DNA of 41,776 nt, from the IMG/VR virus record IMGVR_UViG_3300045988_070752; one strand, written 5' to 3'. Both the position numbers and the translations under genes were made by a program. Shown in pieces: positions 5,838 to 33,250 of this stretch. The notes below the pieces were generated by a model. It worked only from the letters and a program-made list of their open reading frames with translations. It was not told the origin of the DNA and did no database searches. The stretch is from a virus. Numbering within the stretch: position 1 is the stretch's first letter; each line of letters begins with the position of its first letter.

Positions 5838-5866
5838 ATTATATTATATTTGCGTAAATATATCAA
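5838..5866 (-). promoter_or_regulatory. Sigma-A-type promoter TTGATA-17-TATAAT reading toward the packaging/structural genes
   Basis: Minus strand: -35 TTGATA (5866..5861), 17-nt spacer, -10 TATAAT (5843..5838). Overlapped by operator copy 1. Confidence 0.65.
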
Positions 5867-5929
5867 TCGGCAAAATGCACATATTTGCGTAAATATATTT
5901 GTGCAGTATGTATATTTACACAAATATAT
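5846..5929. promoter_or_regulatory. Three palindromic operator-like sites ATATTT-N4-AAATAT(AT)
   Basis: ATATTTGCGTAAATATAT at 5846..5863 and 5881..5898 (identical). ATATTTACACAAATATAT at 5912..5929. Sites 1 and 3 overlap the divergent promoters. Confidence 0.75.
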
Positions 5930-5964: not shown

Positions 5965-6153
5965 ATGTCAGGTACTACTAAAGCATCCCAGAGGGCCGTG
6001 AACAAATACATAGCCAATAACTATGATCGCCTTAACATCACGGTCCCGAAGGGGAAAAAGGATAAGTATAAATTAGCCGCAGAGGCCGAGGGAAAGAGTT
6101 TGAATGCATTCATTGTGGAGTGCATAGAAAAAAGAATGGAGGAACGGGAATGA
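5965..6153 (+). CDS. Ribbon-helix-helix (Arc/CopG-like) DNA-binding protein
   Basis: 62 aa. Beta-strand RLNITVPKG, then helices KDKYKLAAEAEG / KSLNAFIVECIEKRM, the classic RHH layout. Strong RBS. First gene of a 3-gene plus-strand operon. Confidence 0.75.
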   Translation: MSGTTKASQRAVNKYIANNYDRLNITVPKGKKDKYKLAAEAEGKSLNAFIVECIEKRMEERE

Positions 6154-6353
6154 AAAAAAGATATGTCGTAAAAGGCTATTCTTACAATCTTAAAAAAAAT
6201 ATAAATCGCACTTATTATGAAGACGAAATCTCTCAATTTGACGGAAAGTATGCGGAGCTTAATGGATCCTGTATGTGCGTTGCGAACCGGTTCCGTGATA
6301 TTCCCAGATTCAGGCAGGGCGAATTCTCGATTGAAGAGGTAAAGGAGGGTTAA
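6150..6353 (+). CDS. Small hypothetical protein (67 aa)
   Basis: Its ATG overlaps the RHH stop (ATGA coupling at 6150..6153). MKKRYVVKGYSYNLKK... No family recognised. Confidence 0.55.
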   Translation: MKKRYVVKGYSYNLKKNINRTYYEDEISQFDGKYAELNGSCMCVANRFRDIPRFRQGEFSIEEVKEG

Positions 6354-6354
6354 C

Positions 6355-6642
6355 ATGTATATCCAGGGTGTTGGAAACATTAAAAAACAGGATGCGATGA
6401 GCATCCTGACAAAAGAAGGACGCCAGGCAGTTGAGGGCGGAGAAATCACACTGGAAGAGCTCGGACAGATGTATAAGTTGGAGCTTGTCAAGAGGTCTAG
6501 CAAAATTGGCCGTTTCCCCGACACTTTCCTGGAAAGCTATAAGTGGATCCCGGAGGATCTCAGAATCCAGCTTGCGCCGAATCAGTTAGCTGCGCTTGTG
6601 GATAGCTTTCACGAATGCTACGGTGCAGGAAAGAACGCATAG
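6355..6642 (+). CDS. Small hypothetical protein (95 aa)
   Basis: RBS AAAGGAGGG, starts 1 nt after the previous stop, followed by a terminator. No family recognised. Confidence 0.6.
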   Translation: MYIQGVGNIKKQDAMSILTKEGRQAVEGGEITLEELGQMYKLELVKRSSKIGRFPDTFLESYKWIPEDLRIQLAPNQLAALVDSFHECYGAGKNA

Positions 6643-6644
6643 TG

Positions 6645-6672
6645 AAAAAGAGCAGGGAATCCTGCTCTTTTT
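6645..6672. terminator. Bidirectional intrinsic terminator AGAGCAGG-gaat-CCTGCTCT
   Basis: 8-bp perfect stem flanked by A5 upstream and T4-rich sequence downstream, so there is a U-tract on both strands. It ends the plus-strand RHH operon and the minus-strand ncRNA locus. Confidence 0.8.
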
Positions 6673-6697
6673 CTTGTTCTTAATAGTTATTGCTACC

Positions 6698-6733
6698 ATT
6701 TCAATCCGCGCCGGTAAGAATTGCTAACCGAAC
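6698..6733 (-). repeat. CRISPR-repeat-like unit 2: GTTCGGTTAGCAATTCTTACCGGCGCGGATTGAAAT
   Basis: 36 nt on the minus strand. 5-bp stem TCGGT/ACCGG at the same position as in unit 1, 11-nt loop starting TAGCAA, identical 13-nt tail CGCGGATTGAAAT. Confidence 0.6.
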
Positions 6734-6801
6734 CACAGCGCAAAGCATCTTTTGCACTGGACTTATTAAAAGCATTTCTGCTCTTAATCTTTACTGTCAC
6801 T

Positions 6802-6836
6802 ATTTCAATCCGCGATCCCCGGGTTGCTAGGGATAC
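6802..6836 (-). repeat. CRISPR-repeat-like unit 1: GTATCCCTAGCAACCCGGGGATCGCGGATTGAAAT
   Basis: 35 nt on the minus strand. 5-bp stem ATCCC/GGGAT, 10-nt loop, 3' tail CGCGGATTGAAAT. The tail resembles the GTGGATTGAAAC/T end of type I-C repeats (from memory). Confidence 0.6.
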
Positions 6837-6871
6837 CACAATACATAGCATCCAATGTATTGGACAATTTC

Positions 6872-6900
6872 TTTATATCACATTTTGTTCTTAATGTCAA
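6872..6900 (-). promoter_or_regulatory. Near-consensus promoter TTGACA-17-(TGa)TATAAA driving the ncRNA locus
   Basis: Minus strand: -35 TTGACA 6900..6895 (overlaps the stop of the 6897..7217 ORF), 17-nt spacer, extended -10 TGaTATAAA (6877..6872). Confidence 0.7.
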
Positions 6901-7217
6901 TTCTTTCTCCTGATTTTTACTTCCAGCACCTTCCCGTTTTCCATCACTGGTTTCACTTCCAGCTCGTTTTCGTCCGCTCCTTTGATTTCTTCCAGGCTTA
7001 ATGAGATTTCCTGTCCTTTCCCGATCAGCCGCTTGGCCAGCGCCGTCACGTATCGCATTGTCTCCTGGTTGACTGCTGCCGTTCTGGTAATCTCTTCCCT
7101 TGCTCCGATCTCCAGCTTCATACATTCTTTTGCTAGCATTTCCGCCGTATCAAACCTACGTTTGTAATATTTTACATTCTCTTTTTCTTTTTTCAGTCTT
7201 TTTGCAAGTGTTTTCAT
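6897..7217 (-). CDS. Hypothetical protein (106 aa), last gene of the early operon
   Basis: ORF-track ORF. Charged, coiled-coil-like. Its start overlaps the upstream stop by 4 nt. Confidence 0.55.
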   Translation of the reverse strand: MKTLAKRLKKEKENVKYYKRRFDTAEMLAKECMKLEIGAREEITRTAAVNQETMRYVTALAKRLIGKGQEISLSLEEIKGADENELEVKPVMENGKVLEVKIRRKN

Positions 7218-24136: not shown

Positions 24137-27100
24137 TTATTCCAGCCATCCTCTAATTGTTTGCGTGTCCACTCCGAAGTCTCTTAGCAAATCGGAATAC
24201 TTTTTCGTGAGCCTGTCGTTTCCTCTGCTGTTCAGATATGCTGTTTTTAATCTGGACTTCATGGAGGTTTTTATTGCGGAATCTTCTTTTCCGTATTTTT
24301 TCAACCCTTGTTCTATTTCCTTATACTTTTTGCCGTTTTTCCCTTCTGTGGATACCAGAGCATTGAACAGTGCATCGTAGCTATACTCCGTTCCCCCTGT
24401 TGCCTTAGCCTTGGCATTTTGCTCTTTTAAAAGGTTTTTCTGGAAGTCCTCCTCTTTTTCCCCGGCTTCTTTCAGCTGCTTTTTGTATGTGTTCTGCGCC
24501 TGTGTATCATTGTTTTGGGTCGCCATGTAAAGTAAGGTGTATAGTTCTGCTGTGTTGTCTTCCTTCTGCAGGTCTTCCGGCGTTACTTCTGACACTTCGT
24601 ATTCTTCTTCCTGCTTTTCCTCGTCTTCAATCTGATCCAGCGCTGTATTAATGTCTATGCCCTTGCTCTTCAATTCTTCTGACGCGGATTTGAATGTTTC
24701 CATGTCGTTGTTTTTGTATGCCTCTGTTATTTCCTTCTGCAAGCCTTCATCTGCTTCCAGCAGTCCCTCGTCCCTTTTCTTCTTCCATTTCTTGTACGCA
24801 CTGTCAAGTTTTTCTTTGGTGTTCCCGGCTTTTTGCAGATCGTTATAGATGGCTGCTGCTGTTTTGTAATCCCCCTCTTCCCTTGCTCTTCCGTAAAGTC
24901 CGATGAACATGTTTGTGTTTTTCGGATTTCCAGCTCTGTAAAATGTTTTTTTGATCTCATACTCGGCTTTCGCAGTTTCGTTCCCTGTGATCTTGCGATA
25001 GTTCCATGCAATCAAGTCCGCCAGGCTTTCAAACTCTCTGAGCGTGGAGTTTATTGGCATTCCCGACAACTCACTGATCGGTTTCATGGATTCTCTCACA
25101 AGCCCTGCTGCCGTATACTTTGATTCTCCCTGGAAGTATTTGATCCATTTCTGTAATCCCTGCACTGAATCCGTGATACCTGTCATTTCCGTTCTTTCTG
25201 CCGAGTATCCCTTCCATATCGAAGGTATCTCCTTTAAGTATGGAATGTATGTAAGCGGATTCATGTTGTCTTTGAAATTATCTTTCCATGTGTCTACATC
25301 CACCCATGCTGTTTCATCGTCATCATCTCTCCATACATCCGCCAGCGTCTGCGCCAGTGCGTTCACCGCATTTTGTATTGTCAGGATCACCAACAGCTTT
25401 GCCATGCTCTTTGCGACTTCCTTCTTCCCTCCCGGCGTGTTCATTAGCGTGTCGTAGACCATGTTGTAGGTTTTTATCGGCTCCGACATAAAGGATGTTG
25501 CCATTTTTGTTGCATTATCCTTCTGGATCATTACGCTTGACCTGTGCAGGATAGAATCCACAACCTGTGTCCGGTCGATGATTTCGGAAAACCTCTTTCC
25601 TGCTGCCTGATAGAATTCTTCCGACCCCGGTTTTAGGTCTGTTTTATCCTTCGTTTCGTACAATACCGCATTCCAGATTTTCCCCCAGGTGAAGTCATCA
25701 GCCATTCCTGCCGGCGCCATTGCCTTGTCTTTTAACGATTCTTTTCCGAGGATAACATCCTTCATCTGCCGTCCGGTGTCCATCTCAAAATATCCCCAGT
25801 CTTTCCACTGTGCTATCGGTGCATACTTCTTCATCTGGTCTCCGTCCGCTTTTTTTGCCATTCCCTTCATCAGGTACTTTGCATCAATCACCGTTGCTGC
25901 CCTCACAATCGCCGTCGGCTGCTGCAATACAACCCTTAAGTTCGCCCCGATTGCCGCGGACTTCATGTTTGATGTCAGACTTGACCATATCTGTTTTGCC
26001 GTTTCCTTCTCGGCTACTCCGTTTATTCTCCGCACTAAGGTGTCCAGATATGCTCTTCCGTTTTGTCCCATCGTTCTTGTTATGGTCTGTTTTACAGATT
26101 TTTTGTACTTCGTTATCGTAGGATCTCCTCTGTAGTTGTACCACTTCTGCAGGTCTGTTAACGGCACCACAAATGCATTGTAGCTTGCCATCTGGTCGGA
26201 CTGCCTTGCATATACATCAAAAATATCCTGTAATATGATCGGGTTTCCTGCATGCGGCACGGTCGCTTTTGTACTTCCCATGTTTTTCAAGGTCTGTACA
26301 CTTCCTTGCTGGTCTCCGCTTGCCGAATTCGTAAAACTGTTATCTGAAACGATCGGGAAATAGTTTCTTGCCATGAATTTCCTGTATCCGTACAACTGCA
26401 TGGATACTTCGTTTCCCCAGGCGGATGTTGTCGAAGTGAAGAAATCCGTGATTCCATCAGCAATCCTTTTCTGCTCCGGCGTCAGTGTGTCTATGATGTT
26501 CAGCAGGTCTTTTTCGGTTACCCGTATCGGTTCATAGTATCTTGTAACTTCTTTTTTGAGCTTCCCTGCTTTTGTTATGGTTTTTTCTGGCCTTATTCCT
26601 CCTTCCAAAATGTGTTTCTTTGCCTGGTCTCTCTGTAGCAATCTGTACAGGCTCATGACTTGTGCTGTTGTGAGTTTTAACTCTTTCCTTCCCTCGGTTT
26701 CGAATTCGTGCAGCTTCGCCTTGTCTCCCGACCACTCTGATATATCTGTTTCTCCCATCAGATTTTTGATGTAGTCGTGCGCAATTTTGATATTTCTCGT
26801 TTTTTTATCCAGCCCGTTTCTCAATGCCCCGTATATGTCCATTCCAGCTTTTCCCATGGAATTGAAATACGTTCTTGAATCCAGCATATCCAGCTTCATG
26901 AAGTTTCTTGCTGTATTTACGGTTCTGTATACACTTTCCTTTGCACTTTCTTTTTTCTCGTTTTCTTCCAGGAACTTCTCTCCCAGATCCGACACTCTCT
27001 TGTAGTTCTCTGTTGCAAGCAATGTGTTTGTGCTTTCGATGGATTTTTTCACAGCTGTTATCAACCGGTTCAGTTCCTTCATGTCCTGCACGGTCATGTC

Positions 27101-30100
27101 TGCAAGCATTACCTCTTTGTTCTTTTCCGTCAGATCGTTCAACATATTTACCAGATCCGGATCCAGATCTATAAATTGTCCCGTGTATTCTGACTTGTCC
27201 TGCGCCTTGATGATATTCTCATATGCTCTCGATAGAGCCTGCCATTTAAGCGTTCTCTGCGTAGGATTCCCGTACACGTTTACATCCTTGCTGCTTAAAT
27301 TGATGGAATTTAAGAACTCCGCCACCGGTCCCCGTAAGCTCTCCGGAACGCTGTTGGTGTTCGTTGGATTCAAAAGCCATCTGCTTAATCTGTTTGCTGT
27401 CTGTTCGATGTTTTTCGAATAGGCTTTCTTTTCAAAATTCTCTTTTCTTCTCTGCGCAAAATTCCCTCTGTACTCCTCTCTGTACTTTTTGTAATCATCC
27501 CGCATTTTCTCCCTGTATTTCTGGTATTTCAACCGCTCTTTTTCTATCACATTCTTTCTGATCGAATCAATAGAGCCTTTTCCTGCTGCAATATCAAAAT
27601 ACGACTGATAGATTTCATGCGCCAGATCTGCCGCCGCTTCATCAAGATCCATTCCAAATGCATTTTCATACTTCGGCTTTATACTCTCCATTACTTCCGC
27701 TATGTGCATGAGCTGATCCGCAGGGTTGGTGTATATAGTTTCGTCAAACAGCTCCGGGTATCTTTCTGCCAAGGACTGGTAGAAAGAATCAATGCTCTGC
27801 CCTTCTTTTCCCAGCTTTAACGTTCCGAAATTTCTCTTTCGGAATTCTGCATATCCTCCTTCCCGGTCGAAATCTCCCCTCATCTCTTCCGGCACTTCCA
27901 ACTTGATCTGTCTTACCTCTTTTGCCAGATCTTTATACTGCTCTGCGTATCTCTCGTTTACATTTACCTTTGCGTGTTCCAGGATTCCCTTTGCCATATC
28001 CGCCGTGGCTATTGCTACCTGCTCGGCATCTATGTTTTTGGATCCTGATATATACTTCCATATGCCGGTCATATTTCTTGTAAATGTATCCAGATTATAA
28101 TCTGAGTTATAGTCTTTCAGAATTTTCTTTCCGACCTTCTTTATTGCCTCCTGATCCGGTTCTATTCCCTTTGTGGCCTTTATCATCCCTCCCAATATGC
28201 TGTTTAATTCTTTCAGGTCCTTGTTTTCCGCTTTCAGTGTATCGTAGTCTACTTCGGATGTGTCCTCCATCTGGTATCGCAGATCCTCTTTTCCGTCTTC
28301 CTGCATGGAAAATTTCACATCTTTCAGGCTGTTCAAGATTTCTTTTCTCTGGTTCTCATTTCCTTTCTCGTATTCAAGAATCTGTGCATTTCCGGATACT
28401 TTTTCAATATTCCTTCTCGTTGTCTCCGATGTAGAATCCGGAACCACCCAATATGCCACTTCATCGTATCCGATCACGCGCTGCGGCTTCGCTTCAAACA
28501 TATCTACAGGCATCTCTTTGACGCCTTTTATTATGTTCGAAAATTCCTTCGCCTGTGCATCTGTGATTTCCCATCCGTTTTTCTCAAAAACCTTCTTCAC
28601 ATTTCCCTGTGTCGGATTTTTTGACGCATCAAGGATCGTTTCTCCTATGCGGTTCATGGCATCCGCATGATTGAACAGATCCTTCTCTTTCCCCGCAACT
28701 TCTTCCATCGTGGATGCTAATCTGCTTTCCAGTGCGTTCAGTTCTTTTCTGTATCCTTCCGCATCCGTGCTCTGCAGCCTGCTTCTGCTCCTTTTGATAT
28801 CATCTATGCTCTTAAATTCATCTGCTGCCGCTGCTCTTACAGTTTTGATTCCAAGGAATCCGATTGTATTTTTTACATCGTCCGATTGTGCAATCATTGC
28901 CTTTACAATGTTCTCTGCATTGTAAGCATAATGGGTAGAATCGAAGCTCCTTCTGTTTCCCGAACGCGTAAACGGATCCTTTCCGTTCCACAGGCCAGAT
29001 TTTTCCTCGATTCCAGAAAAAATGTCCCTTACCCATTTTTCATAATCAGATTTATTTATTCTGTCATCTGTTTTCTTATTTGTTCCTGTCCAGTCTTCTT
29101 CCCTTTTTACCTCTATTCCGCCATTCTCTTTGAAGTTTCTTGCTTTTCTTACCTGACTTGCGATTTCAAATCCGGTCGTTGCATCTACTACAGATTTTGC
29201 GGTTTCCTCACCTATCCCCTGCTCCAAGTAGTAATCCATCAATGCTTTCCTGATCTGGTCTCCGTATTTCGAAACCATTTCTGACTTTTTCTCTTTTGCA
29301 ATATTATCAATATCATTTCCGAAAACATCTATCAGTTTTTGTGATATCTCTCTATCAACCTCCTTCATTTCCGTTCGTGTTTCTTTGTATTCTACGTCTA
29401 CACTCTCTCCTTTATCCGTCAGGTATGCTGCTTTCATATTGTTATCCCGCAGCGCTTTTTGTACCGTTCCCTCATATCCTCCGTAGTCATCCAGATTGTA
29501 TTCCAGGCCAGCTGCAAACGATTTAACTTTTCTTCCGATTTCCGGGTTCATTTTATCTGCGATCCCGTTTATCCTGTCCTGTGCTTTTCTTGCGGCTTCA
29601 TAGTTTGCTTCATATTCGATTCGCGGGAATGTTGGCGTCCAAGCATCCGCAGAATACACCTTGTTCTTTTTGTTCACCGGATCAATGGTATCTTTCGTGA
29701 ACACAACAGAAATGTCGCCGAAATCGCTATGTCCTATGTCCGTTTTTGTTACGGCTATGGAAATCATAGGGAATCCTTCTAATTCCAGCTGCTTATTTAA
29801 TTTATCTTCCGTGATATTGTGCACGGCAATTAAATCTTTTGTCTCTTCCACGTCTTCCTTTAGACTAAAGGATTTCTTGATTTCGCCACCGGTCACAGAA
29901 TTCGCCGGTGTTTTCTGCCCTGCCCGCCTTGCATCCTGCATGGCTTCCAGCCAGATCTTCTCCGCTTTCTGTGCCGCTTCCAGGCTCTCATTGAGCATCT
30001 GGGCCTCTTTGCTCTTTGGTTCGTATCCTGTGAGCATTTCTTTCAGGTTCGAAATGAACTCCTTGAAGAAGTCCAGAATCTTTTCTCCGATTGATTTGTT

Positions 30101-33100
30101 TTCTTTTACCAGCTGCTGTACTGCTGATTCATCCGTCAGGAACATTTCGCTTGCATTTGCCACGATTTCGTCCATGGCTTCTTCTCTGGAAATCTGGCGA
30201 CCTGCATTCTCGTAATTTGACATGTGTCTTTCAATCAAACCGTCCAATGGCATGTTTTCTTTTTGCATCAGATAGTTGATGACCTCTTTCTTGTACTCAT
30301 CATAAATTGGTGAATACTGCTGCAGGTAGTGCGTCAGTTCGTGGTTTGCCACCACACTTATCGGGCTTGTTGCGTCCGCTGCAATGTGGATCGTTCCGTT
30401 ATTGTCGTAGTAGCCGTTCGCATACCGTCCGTTTCCCGCTGAAATCGTCTCATCTACCACCACGTTTGCCCCGGACATCTTTGCATATGCTTTTAATATT
30501 GTCTGGTTTTCCTTCGTCAGGTTTCTGAAAGCGTCATTTTCTAGTACCTGCGATCCTGCTGTCTTGGTCGCACGCGCCACTTTTAAGTTTTCATACCTTT
30601 GTTCGAAATTAAGGTCTGTTTCGCCAGCTGCATACGCCGCTGCTTTTTGTTTTTCCGTAAGCATGTTTCCGTATACACTGTTCACTTTTCTCATCGGGAT
30701 CCCTACAGTCGCTGCATCGTAATATGCATTGAATCCTTTTTTGTACGCTATCAAGCTTTCTCCGTTGTACTCCATCACGAAATTTCTTGCTCCGGCATTT
30801 TTGTATCCTTCCGCCGTTTGGTAGAGTGCCTGTGTGATAGCATTGTCGAAGTTTAAGTTGCTTACCGGCTGCACGATTGTTGCATCCCCTGTGTTTACCC
30901 GTGCATATATCTTTCCGTTTTCTACCCGGTCGATTCCTTCAATATCTCCCTGTAGACCTTTGTAATTTACCCCTTCTACGCTTCGCTGTGTGCCCGTTTC
31001 CGGCTCTTTTTCTCTTTGTCGTACATTTTCCTGCACCACCTTCTTTTCTTTTGCCTGTTCGTCAATCTGTGGTTCCTGCAAATCCTCTGCCGTCAATTCT
31101 ACCGGCTTTGCTTCCTGTGCAATTTCCTCCCCGGTCTGTGCATCTTCCGTCTCATTCTGTGCAATTTCCTGCGATGGCGTGTATTTTCCGTCCGAATCCT
31201 GCAAAATCTGGTTGAACAGTTCTGCTCTCTGCCTGTCAGAAAGTTTTCCTTTCCTTTCGTAGTATTCTGCCAGATCCGCAGAATTTGTTCCGGTCATAGC
31301 CTTTCCGTCTCTGATGAGCTGTGCATCACTAAAATCTTCGTAGCTGTTTAATTCTCTTCCCAGGTATCCTCCCTCGACATAACCGCTTCCATAGGCTCCT
31401 GCTGCCATGATTCCACCAGACAGTGCCCCACCTGCAAATGAAAGTGCCATATTCTTGATTCTGTCTTTCATCGCCAGATCTTCTGCCTGTCTTCTTGAAA
31501 TGTGTTCCCCTGTCATTGCATTCGGTGTCATGTACCGTTCAACAGCCCGATTAAAATCTGAGTTTTCCTGCATGATCGCGTCGTTGGCAACGTTGTTTAC
31601 GATGTCCGAAACAACTTCTTCCAGACCTTCCGGGATTGCACCTTCTGCGATGATCTTGTGCACTGCCCTCTTTACGGAATTTACACCCTGGCTTGATAAC
31701 TTAGAGAGATTGTCGATTCCCAGCCTCTCCGTTACCATTTCCGCCGCTCCTGCAATCAACCCCAGCTGCATAGCCTGATCGTTGGTTCCTCCATTCTCGA
31801 TCACTTCTTTTACTGTCTGGGACATTGCTCCTGCGCCCATGATCGGAAGTGATGCGTTCTTCGATATCGTCGCTGTGATCTGTGCTGCCCTCTCTGCAGA
31901 TGCTCCGGCAAGAGATGCAGCTTCTCCTGCAAATCCTCCCACTAATGCTCCTGCTGCCGCCTTTGCCCCAAAATCTGCCATAGACATTCCGGTCTGGTAC
32001 AGGAATCTCTTTAAGGCTTTTACATCTTCGCTTCCCTGGAAGTTTTCCATCACAGTGTTTCTGATGGTGCTTTGAGCATTTATCGGTCTGAATGGCTTCG
32101 AATTTATATCTACCGGTGCATTGTTTCCTGTTAGGACGTTCTCTGCGTTTTGGCGCATAGTCTCCAAAGCTCCGAGGCCTGTTGCAAATCCTGCTGCCAC
32201 CGATGATTCCGATGATAGTGTCGGGTGCTCCGTTGCGTACTGTTTCATTTTCTCTGTGTAAGCTTCGTTCTGCCTCTTTGTGATATCCCTCTTTATGGTA
32301 TTTAAGTATTCTTTTGCTTTCTGTACTCCTTCTGTGGCCAGATAGTAATCAAATACATCCTTCTCTGTATCTGTCATGTCCTGGTACTGTTCGTACTCTG
32401 TCTGGTTCTTGAAAATATCAGGGTATGATTTGTCCTCGTTCTGGTATCCTGCCAGCATATCAGCATTGTATACTGTCTTTTTTTGTGCGATCTGGCTTCC
32501 TTTTTTTGCCGCTGTTTCAAATCCCTTTTCATCCAGAACCTTTTCCAGCTCTTTCCGCTTTTCTCCCATCTTCTGATCGTATTTGTCTCGGTCGATTTGC
32601 CCCTGGGCATTTTCCAGCATCTGGTAGGCATCTGTCTGTGATACCTTCTTTCCGGTTGCGTTTGAAAAGCTTTTGGAAAGGTCGGAAAGCGTCTTTGAAT
32701 CCCCGGTGATCTGTTCTGTCATGATGGTTCTTTTTAATTTTTCAAGCGCTTGTCTTCTGGTGCTTGCGTCCATCTGGGAATCATCTGTCAGAAGCCTTTT
32801 GTAATACTGTGTGTCTTTTTCAAGTGCATCCTTTTCGGCAGTGCTTTTTTTCATTCGATCCAAAGCTACGGCTCTTTCCAGTCTCTCTGAACCGATCCTG
32901 TCTCCCTTGACGCCCATTGACCTTTGTATTCTTTCATCCAGCGCCTGTCCTACGCTTCCTATCCTCTTTACTTCTTCCGCATTATCTGTTCCTACGATCC
33001 TCTTGTATTTATTCAGCGCTTCCTGTCTTATTCTTCTTTCTTCTGCTGACTTCCTCAGAGCATCCAGTCTGCTTGTGTTGCTTCCTATGGGTTTTCCTTT

Positions 33101-33250
33101 GATGGTTTCCAGCTTTCTTCTTGCCACTTTCATCGGATCTTCATCTTCCGAATATGAAGTACGGGAAGAGTATTCTTCCTCTTCCTCTTCCCGTTTTTTC
33201 CTTATATCCATCAGTTTTTCCCTTGCTTTTATCTGTGCCTGCGATGCCAT
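24137..33250 (-). CDS. Giant (3,037 aa) multidomain virion-associated protein with an HExxH zincin-like motif
   Basis: Single uninterrupted ORF, 21.9% of the genome. Charged coiled-coil N-terminus. Gly/Ala-rich hydrophobic segments at about aa 440-640. VANHELTHYLQ at aa ~968-977 (30329..30343 encodes HELTH). K/E-rich C-terminus. Lies between the tail genes and the lysis cassette. Confidence 0.7.
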   Translation of the reverse strand: MASQAQIKAREKLMDIRKKREEEEEEYSSRTSYSEDEDPMKVARRKLETIKGKPIGSNTSRLDALRKSAEERRIRQEALNKYKRIVGTDNAEEVKRIGSVGQALDERIQRSMGVKGDRIGSERLERAVALDRMKKSTAEKDALEKDTQYYKRLLTDDSQMDASTRRQALEKLKRTIMTEQITGDSKTLSDLSKSFSNATGKKVSQTDAYQMLENAQGQIDRDKYDQKMGEKRKELEKVLDEKGFETAAKKGSQIAQKKTVYNADMLAGYQNEDKSYPDIFKNQTEYEQYQDMTDTEKDVFDYYLATEGVQKAKEYLNTIKRDITKRQNEAYTEKMKQYATEHPTLSSESSVAAGFATGLGALETMRQNAENVLTGNNAPVDINSKPFRPINAQSTIRNTVMENFQGSEDVKALKRFLYQTGMSMADFGAKAAAGALVGGFAGEAASLAGASAERAAQITATISKNASLPIMGAGAMSQTVKEVIENGGTNDQAMQLGLIAGAAEMVTERLGIDNLSKLSSQGVNSVKRAVHKIIAEGAIPEGLEEVVSDIVNNVANDAIMQENSDFNRAVERYMTPNAMTGEHISRRQAEDLAMKDRIKNMALSFAGGALSGGIMAAGAYGSGYVEGGYLGRELNSYEDFSDAQLIRDGKAMTGTNSADLAEYYERKGKLSDRQRAELFNQILQDSDGKYTPSQEIAQNETEDAQTGEEIAQEAKPVELTAEDLQEPQIDEQAKEKKVVQENVRQREKEPETGTQRSVEGVNYKGLQGDIEGIDRVENGKIYARVNTGDATIVQPVSNLNFDNAITQALYQTAEGYKNAGARNFVMEYNGESLIAYKKGFNAYYDAATVGIPMRKVNSVYGNMLTEKQKAAAYAAGETDLNFEQRYENLKVARATKTAGSQVLENDAFRNLTKENQTILKAYAKMSGANVVVDETISAGNGRYANGYYDNNGTIHIAADATSPISVVANHELTHYLQQYSPIYDEYKKEVINYLMQKENMPLDGLIERHMSNYENAGRQISREEAMDEIVANASEMFLTDESAVQQLVKENKSIGEKILDFFKEFISNLKEMLTGYEPKSKEAQMLNESLEAAQKAEKIWLEAMQDARRAGQKTPANSVTGGEIKKSFSLKEDVEETKDLIAVHNITEDKLNKQLELEGFPMISIAVTKTDIGHSDFGDISVVFTKDTIDPVNKKNKVYSADAWTPTFPRIEYEANYEAARKAQDRINGIADKMNPEIGRKVKSFAAGLEYNLDDYGGYEGTVQKALRDNNMKAAYLTDKGESVDVEYKETRTEMKEVDREISQKLIDVFGNDIDNIAKEKKSEMVSKYGDQIRKALMDYYLEQGIGEETAKSVVDATTGFEIASQVRKARNFKENGGIEVKREEDWTGTNKKTDDRINKSDYEKWVRDIFSGIEEKSGLWNGKDPFTRSGNRRSFDSTHYAYNAENIVKAMIAQSDDVKNTIGFLGIKTVRAAAADEFKSIDDIKRSRSRLQSTDAEGYRKELNALESRLASTMEEVAGKEKDLFNHADAMNRIGETILDASKNPTQGNVKKVFEKNGWEITDAQAKEFSNIIKGVKEMPVDMFEAKPQRVIGYDEVAYWVVPDSTSETTRRNIEKVSGNAQILEYEKGNENQRKEILNSLKDVKFSMQEDGKEDLRYQMEDTSEVDYDTLKAENKDLKELNSILGGMIKATKGIEPDQEAIKKVGKKILKDYNSDYNLDTFTRNMTGIWKYISGSKNIDAEQVAIATADMAKGILEHAKVNVNERYAEQYKDLAKEVRQIKLEVPEEMRGDFDREGGYAEFRKRNFGTLKLGKEGQSIDSFYQSLAERYPELFDETIYTNPADQLMHIAEVMESIKPKYENAFGMDLDEAAADLAHEIYQSYFDIAAGKGSIDSIRKNVIEKERLKYQKYREKMRDDYKKYREEYRGNFAQRRKENFEKKAYSKNIEQTANRLSRWLLNPTNTNSVPESLRGPVAEFLNSINLSSKDVNVYGNPTQRTLKWQALSRAYENIIKAQDKSEYTGQFIDLDPDLVNMLNDLTEKNKEVMLADMTVQDMKELNRLITAVKKSIESTNTLLATENYKRVSDLGEKFLEENEKKESAKESVYRTVNTARNFMKLDMLDSRTYFNSMGKAGMDIYGALRNGLDKKTRNIKIAHDYIKNLMGETDISEWSGDKAKLHEFETEGRKELKLTTAQVMSLYRLLQRDQAKKHILEGGIRPEKTITKAGKLKKEVTRYYEPIRVTEKDLLNIIDTLTPEQKRIADGITDFFTSTTSAWGNEVSMQLYGYRKFMARNYFPIVSDNSFTNSASGDQQGSVQTLKNMGSTKATVPHAGNPIILQDIFDVYARQSDQMASYNAFVVPLTDLQKWYNYRGDPTITKYKKSVKQTITRTMGQNGRAYLDTLVRRINGVAEKETAKQIWSSLTSNMKSAAIGANLRVVLQQPTAIVRAATVIDAKYLMKGMAKKADGDQMKKYAPIAQWKDWGYFEMDTGRQMKDVILGKESLKDKAMAPAGMADDFTWGKIWNAVLYETKDKTDLKPGSEEFYQAAGKRFSEIIDRTQVVDSILHRSSVMIQKDNATKMATSFMSEPIKTYNMVYDTLMNTPGGKKEVAKSMAKLLVILTIQNAVNALAQTLADVWRDDDDETAWVDVDTWKDNFKDNMNPLTYIPYLKEIPSIWKGYSAERTEMTGITDSVQGLQKWIKYFQGESKYTAAGLVRESMKPISELSGMPINSTLREFESLADLIAWNYRKITGNETAKAEYEIKKTFYRAGNPKNTNMFIGLYGRAREEGDYKTAAAIYNDLQKAGNTKEKLDSAYKKWKKKRDEGLLEADEGLQKEITEAYKNNDMETFKSASEELKSKGIDINTALDQIEDEEKQEEEYEVSEVTPEDLQKEDNTAELYTLLYMATQNNDTQAQNTYKKQLKEAGEKEEDFQKNLLKEQNAKAKATGGTEYSYDALFNALVSTEGKNGKKYKEIEQGLKKYGKEDSAIKTSMKSRLKTAYLNSRGNDRLTKKYSDLLRDFGVDTQTIRGWLE

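Follow-up and report, generated by a model that had tools for sequence, protein, structure and literature searches.

A pseudoknotted RNA family of Clostridia phages with ends resembling type I-C CRISPR repeats

The window analysed here, a stretch of 41,776 nucleotides from the IMG/VR virus record IMGVR_UViG_3300045988_070752, comes from a temperate phage encoding a large and a small terminase, a portal protein, a single-stranded DNA-binding protein (SSB), a replication protein, two methylases and a serine-recombinase integrase. On its minus strand it carries a non-coding RNA locus whose two units belong to a large, previously undescribed RNA family, with members in temperate phages of gut Clostridia (Lachnospiraceae-type hosts). 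Each unit is a compact pseudoknotted core of two kissing hairpins with an invariant single-stranded tail, and the family reproduces both ends of the type I-C CRISPR repeat, about 15 nt altogether, correctly ordered and oriented. The RNA is nearly always found convergent to a gene for a small orphan protein, here called p95. Tentatively, and with somewhat less than even confidence, we read the RNA as an expanded mimic of the type I-C repeat, which in the manner of the RNA anti-CRISPRs (Racrs) would act as a decoy and titrate the Cas proteins that bind the repeat-derived handle.

The RNA locus, its relatives and its fold

A sequence-only reading of this stretch had proposed a self-contained RNA locus with two paralogous units, a near-consensus promoter (TTGACA-17-TGnTATAAA) and a bidirectional terminator, and all of this was borne out, down to its coordinates and sequences (Table 1). 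The -10 box ends 6 nt ahead of unit 1, and transcription is predicted to start at or beside G6865. Equivalent -35 and -10 boxes are found 6-8 nt 5' of the GTC of the first unit in every lineage of the family, and the locus is highly likely to be transcribed constitutively. A consensus promoter scan did not report the window promoter, because its rule demands a T at the last position of the -10 box. The terminator has a fold z-score of -6.45. The two units are spaced 104 nt apart and align over about 104 nt, their conservation reaches to both sides of the repeat-like part, and a covariance model derived from relatives matches the whole 41.8-kb window exactly twice.

The upstream hairpin and the repeat-like module, described earlier as separate elements, are both real, but together they form a single domain of 64-65 nt, beginning at GUC (6865 and 6762), in which a loop-loop helix ties the two halves to each other. 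We refer to the two stems as P1 and P2, and to their loops as L1 and L2. Since the repeat had been defined as the second hairpin and tail only, a spacer of 68 nt (6801..6734) seemed to separate the two modules; the actual linker measures 39 nt, is conserved and structured, and contains a hairpin with a fold z-score of -4.35.

Table 1. Positions of the RNA locus and the convergent p95 operon in the window
Feature	Position	Strand	Details
RNA promoter	6872..6900	-	-35 TTGACA 6900-6895; 17-nt spacer; TG 6880-6879; extended -10 TATAAA 6877-6872
RNA unit 1, 64 nt	6802..6865	-	covariance-model match, 70.2 bits, E 1.9e-17
Unit 1, P1	6865-6855 with 6846-6835	-	loop L1 UGGAUGCU at 6854-6847
Unit 1, P2	6834-6830 with 6819-6815	-	loop L2 UAGCAACCCG at 6829-6820
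Unit 1, 3' part		-	linker CGC 6814-6812, then tail GGAUUGAAAU 6811-6802
Inter-unit linker, 39 nt	6763..6801	-	13 nt single-stranded, then 10-bp hairpin with GAAA loop (6788-6765)
RNA unit 2, 65 nt	6698..6762	-	covariance-model match, 66.1 bits, E 2.6e-16
Unit 2, P1	6762-6752 with 6743-6732	-	loop L1 AAGAUGCU at 6751-6744
Unit 2, P2	6731-6727 with 6715-6711	-	loop L2 UAGCAAUUCUU at 6726-6716
Unit 2, 3' part		-	linker CGC 6710-6708, then tail GGAUUGAAAU 6707-6698
Post-tail segment of unit 2	6697-6674	-	
Bidirectional intrinsic terminator	6673-6644		perfect 13-bp stem; common to the RNA and the convergent p95 operon
p95	6355..6642	+	95-aa all-helical orphan protein; conserved convergent partner of the RNA
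Operon gene 1	5965-6153	+	62-aa Arc/ribbon-helix-helix (RHH)-type DNA-binding protein; weak Pfam matches to HicB, TacA and Arc
Operon gene 2	6120-6353	+	77-aa orphan protein; no family match
16-bp palindrome ATATTTGCGTAAATAT, three copies	5846-5861, 5881-5896, 5912-5927		divergent promoter region between the RHH operon and small minus-strand open reading frames

An 11-mer, ATTAAGAACAA, occurs in the spacer of the RNA promoter (6885-6895) and again after unit 2 (6674-6684), with a variant, ATTAAGAGCA, after unit 1 (6782-6791; minus-strand letters). It may mark the end points of the duplication that made the second unit, or be a binding site.

A strict pattern search returned four sister contigs, two of which have a single unit between the same promoter and terminator. 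A relaxed search matched more than 119 viral contigs, with a discrete element of 64-66 nt in about 90. A single scan of genomes added diverged copies from Dorea, Blautia, two Clostridia/Bacilli metagenome-assembled genomes (MAGs) and one bin labelled Selenomonadaceae; the remaining 45 matches of that scan were chance matches, mostly within coding sequence. In all, more than 90 distinct sequences make up the family, which is spread over more than 150 viral contigs and also occurs in prophages or MAGs of Dorea, Blautia and other Clostridia. Its consensus runs GTC(G/A/C)CA, a first hairpin with the loop (U)GGAUGCU, UGYGGU, a second hairpin with the loop AGCRAUYCC, a 3-nt linker and GGAUUGAAAY. 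The covariance model, which the sequence-only reading had put forward as a check and which was trained on 20 diverse units, scored more than 200 family units at 33-87 bits, setting them apart from the chance matches of the pattern searches. Among the loci of those chance matches it returned only one marginal match (L011, 21.3 bits, E 0.007).

When the window was scanned with the models of Rfam 15, among them hammerhead, twister, pistol, hatchet and the CRISPR direct repeats, no match overlapped the units, whether the gathering threshold was applied or, with permissive filters, E<=10, and a tRNA and tmRNA scan of the window found none. No relatives were found among GenBank phages by blastn, either with the window locus or with a commoner, GC-rich array, and we found no paper with the core sequences of the family in the searchable literature.

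The bin labelled Selenomonadaceae (L149) carries two back-to-back RNA arrays of two and three units (142-304 and 467-728), each with its own promoter-like region and terminator, giving five units within 600 nt. In a Clostridiales MAG (L137, 1490-2218) a lone unit without p95 adjoins the gene of an AP2-domain protein (a weak CapR-homology match), and the surroundings are ordinary chromosomal genes encoding a fumarase, a histidine kinase and a LytTR regulator; this lone unit may be a minimal mobile island.

The evidence for the core fold is comparative, since a unit taken by itself folds with unremarkable energy (z about -0.4). The centroid fold of unit 1 recovers P1 and P2. P1 begins at nucleotide 1, P2 abuts it with no nucleotide between, and the single-stranded tail (GGA)UUGAAAY comes last. 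Unguided RNAalifold found both hairpins, with double compensatory changes in all ten of the predicted pairs. In P1, the pairs G1.U, U2.G and C3-G are nearly invariant and position 4/28 is G.U, A-U, G-C or U-A, and in P2 every pair covaries across the family. The differences between the stems of the two window units that had been noticed earlier (ATCCC/GGGAT versus TCGGT/ACCGG, and ATACAT/ATGTAT versus GTGCAAA/TTTGCGC) are real and generalise to covariation across the family. The second-unit sequences, such as GUCGCGUGCAG...CUGCGCGUGGU, place the start of P1 at nucleotide 1. A pairing of UGUGGU with the CAC linker, which would lengthen P2, was dropped in favour of this arrangement, because the second-unit sequences give a continuous P1 of 11 bp and position 4/28 covaries.

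The loops pair with each other, GGA.GCU of L1 with AGC...UCC of L2. The full model of P1, P2 and the loop-loop helix leaves 91.9% of cells paired in 62 distinct units, compared with 73.3% in column shuffles (none of 500 reached the observed value) and 33-53% in slid controls. An independent sample of units, selected by p95, gave 91.0% of cells paired and 69.6% in its shuffles. Here the two informative loop-loop pairs were CG 49, GC 16, UA 1 and UG 1, with none unpaired, and GC 52, AU 9, UA 2 and GU 2, respectively. Unit 2 of the window has itself undergone a compensatory change, with A in L1 and U in L2 where most members have a G-C pair. The wobbles G1.U and U2.G occur in almost all members and would be mismatched on the other strand, which fixes the transcribed strand; the promoters and terminators across the family agree with it. 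A coding reading, in which the conserved element would be a 52-aa open reading frame (ORF; 6693-6851, minus strand) over the units, was rejected, as indels across the family and the compensatory changes in the stems are incompatible with protein conservation.

Small, tandem, pseudoknotted RNAs of phage-host conflict are also known from type III toxin-antitoxin systems (ToxI, CptI and pseudo-ToxI), and the family could be a decoy for a defence system of this or another RNA-recognising kind, as a pseudo-ToxI-like mimic or another nuclease substrate. Phages carry tandem-repeat RNA mimics of type III antitoxins (PMC3475682). These antitoxins form pseudoknots, and one of their families, CptIN, is known from Lachnospiraceae (PMC4627078). 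An endoribonuclease could have its site in the invariant A-rich tail, UUGAAAY-AAUA. CptI, however, is an H-type pseudoknot of 45 nt whose repeats abut and have free ends (PMC4627078), and the antitoxins of the CptI/ToxI kind, at 36-45 nt, abut one another and have single-stranded 5' and 3' ends, whereas the unit found here is 65 nt long, has kissing hairpins and structured linkers, and buries its 5' end in P1. Type III antitoxins are also followed on the same strand by the gene of their endoribonuclease toxin, while the gene next to the RNA is convergent, so that the defining set of 34-45-nt abutting H-type repeats, free ends and a downstream toxin is not seen in this family. Many loci have a single unit, there is no Rfam match at E<=10, and the double match to the type I-C termini would be left without explanation. 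We therefore consider a mimic of this kind improbable.

Likeness to type I-C repeats and the decoy reading

The type I-C repeat of the Lachnospiraceae member Roseburia hominis (GTCGCTCCCTGTGAGGGGAGCGTGGATTGAAAT; PMC4645204) and the published repeats of Bacillus halodurans (GTCGCACTCTTCATGGGTGCGTGGATTGAAAT) and Bacteroides coprophilus (GTCGCACCCTGCGTGGGTGCGTGGATTGAAAC) share their termini with the twelve commonest repeats in 95 metagenomic type I-C arrays. It is these termini, the first 5-7 nt (GTCGC[A/T]C) and the last 10 nt (GGATTGAAA[C/T]), that recur in the RNA units, and as in the unit, a hairpin stands directly 5' of the handle. Among the 62 distinct units, 42 begin with GTCGC, 24 of these with GTCGCAC, and 57 end in GGATTGAAA(C/T). 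The two window units open with GTCCA, a derived form with one base fewer. The type I-C-like tail pointed out in the sequence-only reading is thus identical to the 3' end of published repeats, and the 5' GUCGC of most relatives matches as well. A diverged CRISPR repeat in the simple sense, as it was called there, is nevertheless not what the unit is. The type I-C repeat has 32-33 nt and a single hairpin with a tetraloop; the unit has 65 nt, two hairpins with conserved loops of 8-10 nt and a pseudoknot, a core not known from any CRISPR repeat. Also unlike type I-C repeats, the units come without diverse spacers and without adjacent cas genes.

The closest known parallel is with the Racrs (Camara-Wilpert et al. 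2023, PMC10651486), which have their own promoters and cluster with acr genes. RacrIC1 is a solitary type I-C repeat beside acrIC5 in a prophage and inhibits type I-C interference (PMC10651486). Like the Racrs, the RNA family is encoded by phages and prophages outside any CRISPR-Cas locus and has its own promoter, within 250 bp upstream; in the window, the larger ORFs were tested and contain no cas domain, in line with the earlier statement that this phage lacks cas genes. With RacrIC1, it shares the 5' start and the 3' handle sequence of the type I-C repeat, and its place beside small orphan genes and DNA-binding regulators may correspond to that of racr genes beside acr and aca genes. Racrs, however, consist of one repeat of ordinary length and follow the cognate repeat closely in both sequence and hairpin. 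The RNA unit, in contrast, has 65 nt, a covarying loop-loop helix that locks its two hairpins together and a linker of 3 nt between hairpin and handle; a conserved AU-rich segment follows it, and often 2-4 units stand in tandem. Only the termini of the unit match a repeat, and as likeness over the full repeat is missing, in both sequence and structure, we place the RNA as one that would work like a Racr and not as a member of the class.

In the decoy reading, the unit would keep the 5' GUCGC of the repeat and, as its single-stranded tail, the 3' CRISPR RNA (crRNA) handle (G)GAUUGAAAY. The simple repeat hairpin would have been replaced by two abutting hairpins, whose paired loops would make the pseudoknotted core rigid. 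Each unit is followed by an AU-rich stretch of about 20 nt and then by a hairpin or terminator. The handle-like tail and the adjoining hairpin could then be bound by Cas5c, Cas7 and Cas8c of a host type I-C Cascade, and these proteins would be titrated into dead-end complexes, shielding the phage or prophage from CRISPR interference. The RNA, the p95 operon and a variable cargo of small proteins would act together as one anti-defence locus. Going further, the family could represent a new class of RNA anti-CRISPR, in which a phage-inserted second hairpin kisses the first; the resulting scaffold, rigid and probably uncleavable, would display the handle and trap Cas5c or subunits of Cascade, maybe as a ribonucleoprotein with p95, to which the RNA is linked in about 95% of loci. 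This further step we regard as doubtful; if true, RNA mimics of repeats evolve elaborate tertiary structure and dedicated protein partners and are missed by searches for repeat similarity.

Several observations weigh against a type I-C decoy. The unit is twice as long as the repeat, and the linker between hairpin and handle has 3 nt in place of 1-2 nt. In the most diverged members, the tail becomes GGGUUGAAAA, GUGUUGAAAU or GUAUUGAAAC. With such drift, the invariant part is UUGAAA and not the GGA that is specific for type I-C. UUGAAA is the part of the handle common to several type I and type III repeat families. None of 2,242 type I-C spacers matched the window or about 200 related phage loci, a weak negative, as the arrays were sampled randomly and at most 120 loci were covered. 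A simple decoy model does not account for the strong conservation of the loops and of the AU-rich segment after the tail. The linkage to p95, being near-obligate, could mean that the RNA acts with p95 in a role unrelated to CRISPR.

Two other interpretations of the conserved sequences were tried and rejected. A likeness of the tail to the anticodon arm of tRNA-Phe was dropped, as there is no closing stem 3' of the tail. A small RNA acting as a CsrA/RsmA sponge was dropped because the GGA motifs are not invariant: the GGA of L1 pairs with L2 and covaries to AGA, UGA and similar, and the GGA of the tail varies (GGG, GUG, GUA, GAA), with UUGAAA staying invariant.

Candidates for true solitary type I-C repeats were noticed on three metagenome contigs (L319, at 436-468 on the minus strand, L261 and L296). 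The one on L319 has a TATAAT box 8 nt 5' of its GTC, the same promoter-to-GTC geometry as in the RNA family, although this is a single anecdotal case. A canonical solitary repeat was also sought in the place of the RNA at the p95 loci that lack it, where promoter and array are simply deleted.

The tandem layout of the units has a further possible meaning. The sequence-only reading had offered, as one option, a hijacking mini-array with a 68-nt spacer, and the transcript could accordingly be a crRNA-like guide: host Cas proteins would process it at every unit, and the stretch behind the handle would direct Cascade to a target, for example a host cas promoter, a CRISPR-guarding toxin or a rival phage. 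Phage repeat-like tandem elements under one promoter are indeed known from virus-borne mini-arrays and viral crRNA-like RNAs (Cracrs), among which are nine two-spacer arrays of type I-C (bioRxiv 10.1101/2024.10.29.618823), and the layout here, 1-4 units at 26-56 nt spacing, is array-like. The retention of the post-tail segment across lineages would also fit a conserved regulatory target. Cracrs, however, have pseudo-repeats of normal length and short spacers matching the promoters of host cas or toxin genes (Liu et al., bioRxiv 10.1101/2024.10.29.618823), not units of 65 nt in place of 32-33 nt. Of 75 p95-anchored loci with the RNA, 28 have a single unit, with no downstream repeat, 46 have two and one has four. 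The inter-unit segments (26-56 nt) are conserved within lineages and, unlike spacers, share an AU-rich consensus across lineages, approximately AAUARYAUUUUYnRUAAU, followed by a small hairpin of their own; a similar AU-rich segment leads from the last unit into the terminator, and the 39-nt linker of the window is paralogous to the segment after unit 2.

A search for targets of these segments, also suggested in the sequence-only reading, gave no support to the guide. The post-tail segments of the window have no second site in the phage within 6 mismatches per 24 nt, and shuffled 24-mers reach 6-8. When 58 distinct post-tail 18-mers were compared, at up to 3 mismatches, with both strands of 1.27 Mb of type I-C loci from the metagenome scan, there were 49 matches against 53 for reversed controls, none of the 49 with a flanking TTC protospacer-adjacent motif. 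Repeats around typical diverse or target-matching spacers, the mark of a mini-array or Cracr, are thus not what this locus has, and we judge a guide function quite improbable.

p95, its operon and the orphan genes around the RNA

In 51 loci selected by the RNA pattern, the RNA has a convergent homologue of p95 (37-100% identity) on its downstream side. The reverse test gave the same picture, as 75 of the 79 viral loci picked by p95 alone contain the RNA, always on the opposite strand. Of the four loci without it, one is truncated, and two others, L191 and L206, show a clean loss of promoter and array. In some lineages, including the most diverged, p95 and the RNA are 39-67 nt apart, and in others 0.15-1.5 kb. 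The longer gaps contain genes for small orphan proteins (58-119 aa, often acidic) from at least 12 unrelated families, none of them matched in Pfam or PHROGs. Two genome copies of the RNA (L125 and L137) have no p95 and do not lie beside cas genes.

p95 has about 280 relatives, all of them unannotated. It has no match in Pfam, in PHROGs or among PDB sequences, and a tblastn search of the GenBank phage collection returned a single unannotated faecal fragment only. Its AlphaFold model is all-helical and confident (pLDDT, the predicted local distance difference test, 92.5) but has no structural neighbour in PDB or BFVD by Foldseek. In three diverged lineages (L025, L082 and L168), p95 is fused to an N-terminal XRE-type helix-turn-helix (HTH) domain, HTH_3, which scores above the Pfam cut-off and brings the protein to 147-150 aa. 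This fusion suggests that p95 works together with a DNA-binding function.

In the window, p95 is preceded by the other two genes of its operon, which opens with the RHH gene. The 62-aa RHH protein matches phrog_13890 (4.5e-16) and Arc-like repressor families in PHROGs. The palindrome upstream of this operon, ATATTTGCGTAAATAT, gives 6 strand-matches against 0.4 expected, a number reached by none of 100 shuffles, and it is probably the operator of the RHH repressor and operon. It is absent from the RNA promoter. Spurious microRNA-like Rfam matches near 5846-5927 are due to this palindrome.

These observations allow another account of the RNA, the main rival of the decoy, in which it is the partner of a p95 module unrelated to CRISPR and its likeness to the repeat termini is convergent or vestigial. 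In one version, p95, alone, fused to HTH or paired with an HTH or RHH protein, binds the folded RNA, which might serve as a regulator, an antitoxin-like inhibitor or a cofactor of p95 in a prophage switch or exclusion system. Such a module would account better than the decoy for the near-obligate linkage, seen with a fixed convergent orientation in 75 of 79 p95-anchored loci and in the 51 pattern-anchored loci, the latter down to 37% protein identity, and for the conservation of the loops. Loops and tail are kept beyond the needs of pairing, as for recognition by a protein. The spacing of 39-67 nt in the most diverged lineages speaks for it too, and the HTH_3 fusions suggest a regulatory role. 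On the other hand, the RNA can occur without p95 (L125 and L137), up to 1.5 kb of unrelated cargo separates the two in many loci, the palindrome that is the probable operator of the p95 operon is missing from the RNA promoter, no RNA-binding or nuclease fold can be recognised in p95, and the double match to the type I-C termini is left unexplained. On balance we hold this account to be unlikely, if a serious one; the guide, the antitoxin mimic and a ribozyme (see below) are less likely than it.

The surroundings of the RNA look like an anti-defence hotspot of small orphan genes. A conserved DNA-binding anchor among shuffled small orphan genes is the pattern of anti-CRISPR (acr-aca) loci. Here, a regulator of the RHH or HTH type and an orphan protein stand among shuffled small orphan genes, which supports the likeness to an anti-CRISPR locus noted in the sequence-only reading; many small orphan proteins adjoin the RNA beside the regulators, none of them in a known family. 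As with the Aca regulators or the HTH-Acr fusion AcrIIA1, a conserved small gene with a DNA-binding module, HTH as a fusion or RHH next to it, anchors the variable orphan-gene locus, but p95 has no sequence or structural similarity to known Acr or Aca proteins.

RNA anti-CRISPRs were discovered only in 2023, through near-exact solitary repeats, and the roughly 15 repeat-like terminal nucleotides of the present units would escape searches of that kind. The family is abundant in human-gut phages, and to our knowledge, there is almost no experimental work on anti-CRISPRs of Lachnospiraceae phages. If type I-C systems are the target, the Racr concept would extend to structurally elaborated mimics, the RNA and p95 would be conserved markers for new anti-defence genes in Lachnospiraceae phages, and a compact inhibitor of type I-C editing tools could follow. 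If the RNA is not directed at CRISPR, it would still be a new and widespread pseudoknotted phage RNA with an obligate orphan protein partner; either way, the family merits an Rfam entry.

Other features of the window

The only true Rfam match in the window is a type II hammerhead ribozyme (RF02276; 5564-5629, minus strand; 59.9 bits against a gathering threshold of 37), which has a 54-aa ORF on either side and sits just ahead of the gene for the small terminase, at about 1.1 kb from the RNA. With this ribozyme close by, the RNA might itself be a new self-cleaving ribozyme or another catalytic or processing RNA of the hammerhead-associated kind found in phages, a notion that its compact pseudoknot, invariant loop and junction nucleotides and tandem units would fit. 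Yet it matches no ribozyme family, its invariant tail is single-stranded and has no conserved pairing partner, and nothing points to a cleavage site. Furthermore, the hammerhead is unlinked in related loci, its flanking genes being common to only 2-3 loci. We regard catalysis as very improbable indeed.

The -35 box of the RNA promoter overlaps the stop codon of an upstream 106-aa ORF (6897-7217). Short direct repeats, TTTTACTTCCAGC..., with a period of about 33-36 nt, are found within this ORF at 6915-6995 (plus-strand coordinates), which suggests that its product is internally repetitive. Elsewhere in the window, a single minus-strand ORF (24137-33250) encodes 3,037 aa, unusually large for a phage of 42 kb, and is presumably a tail or tape-measure fusion protein.

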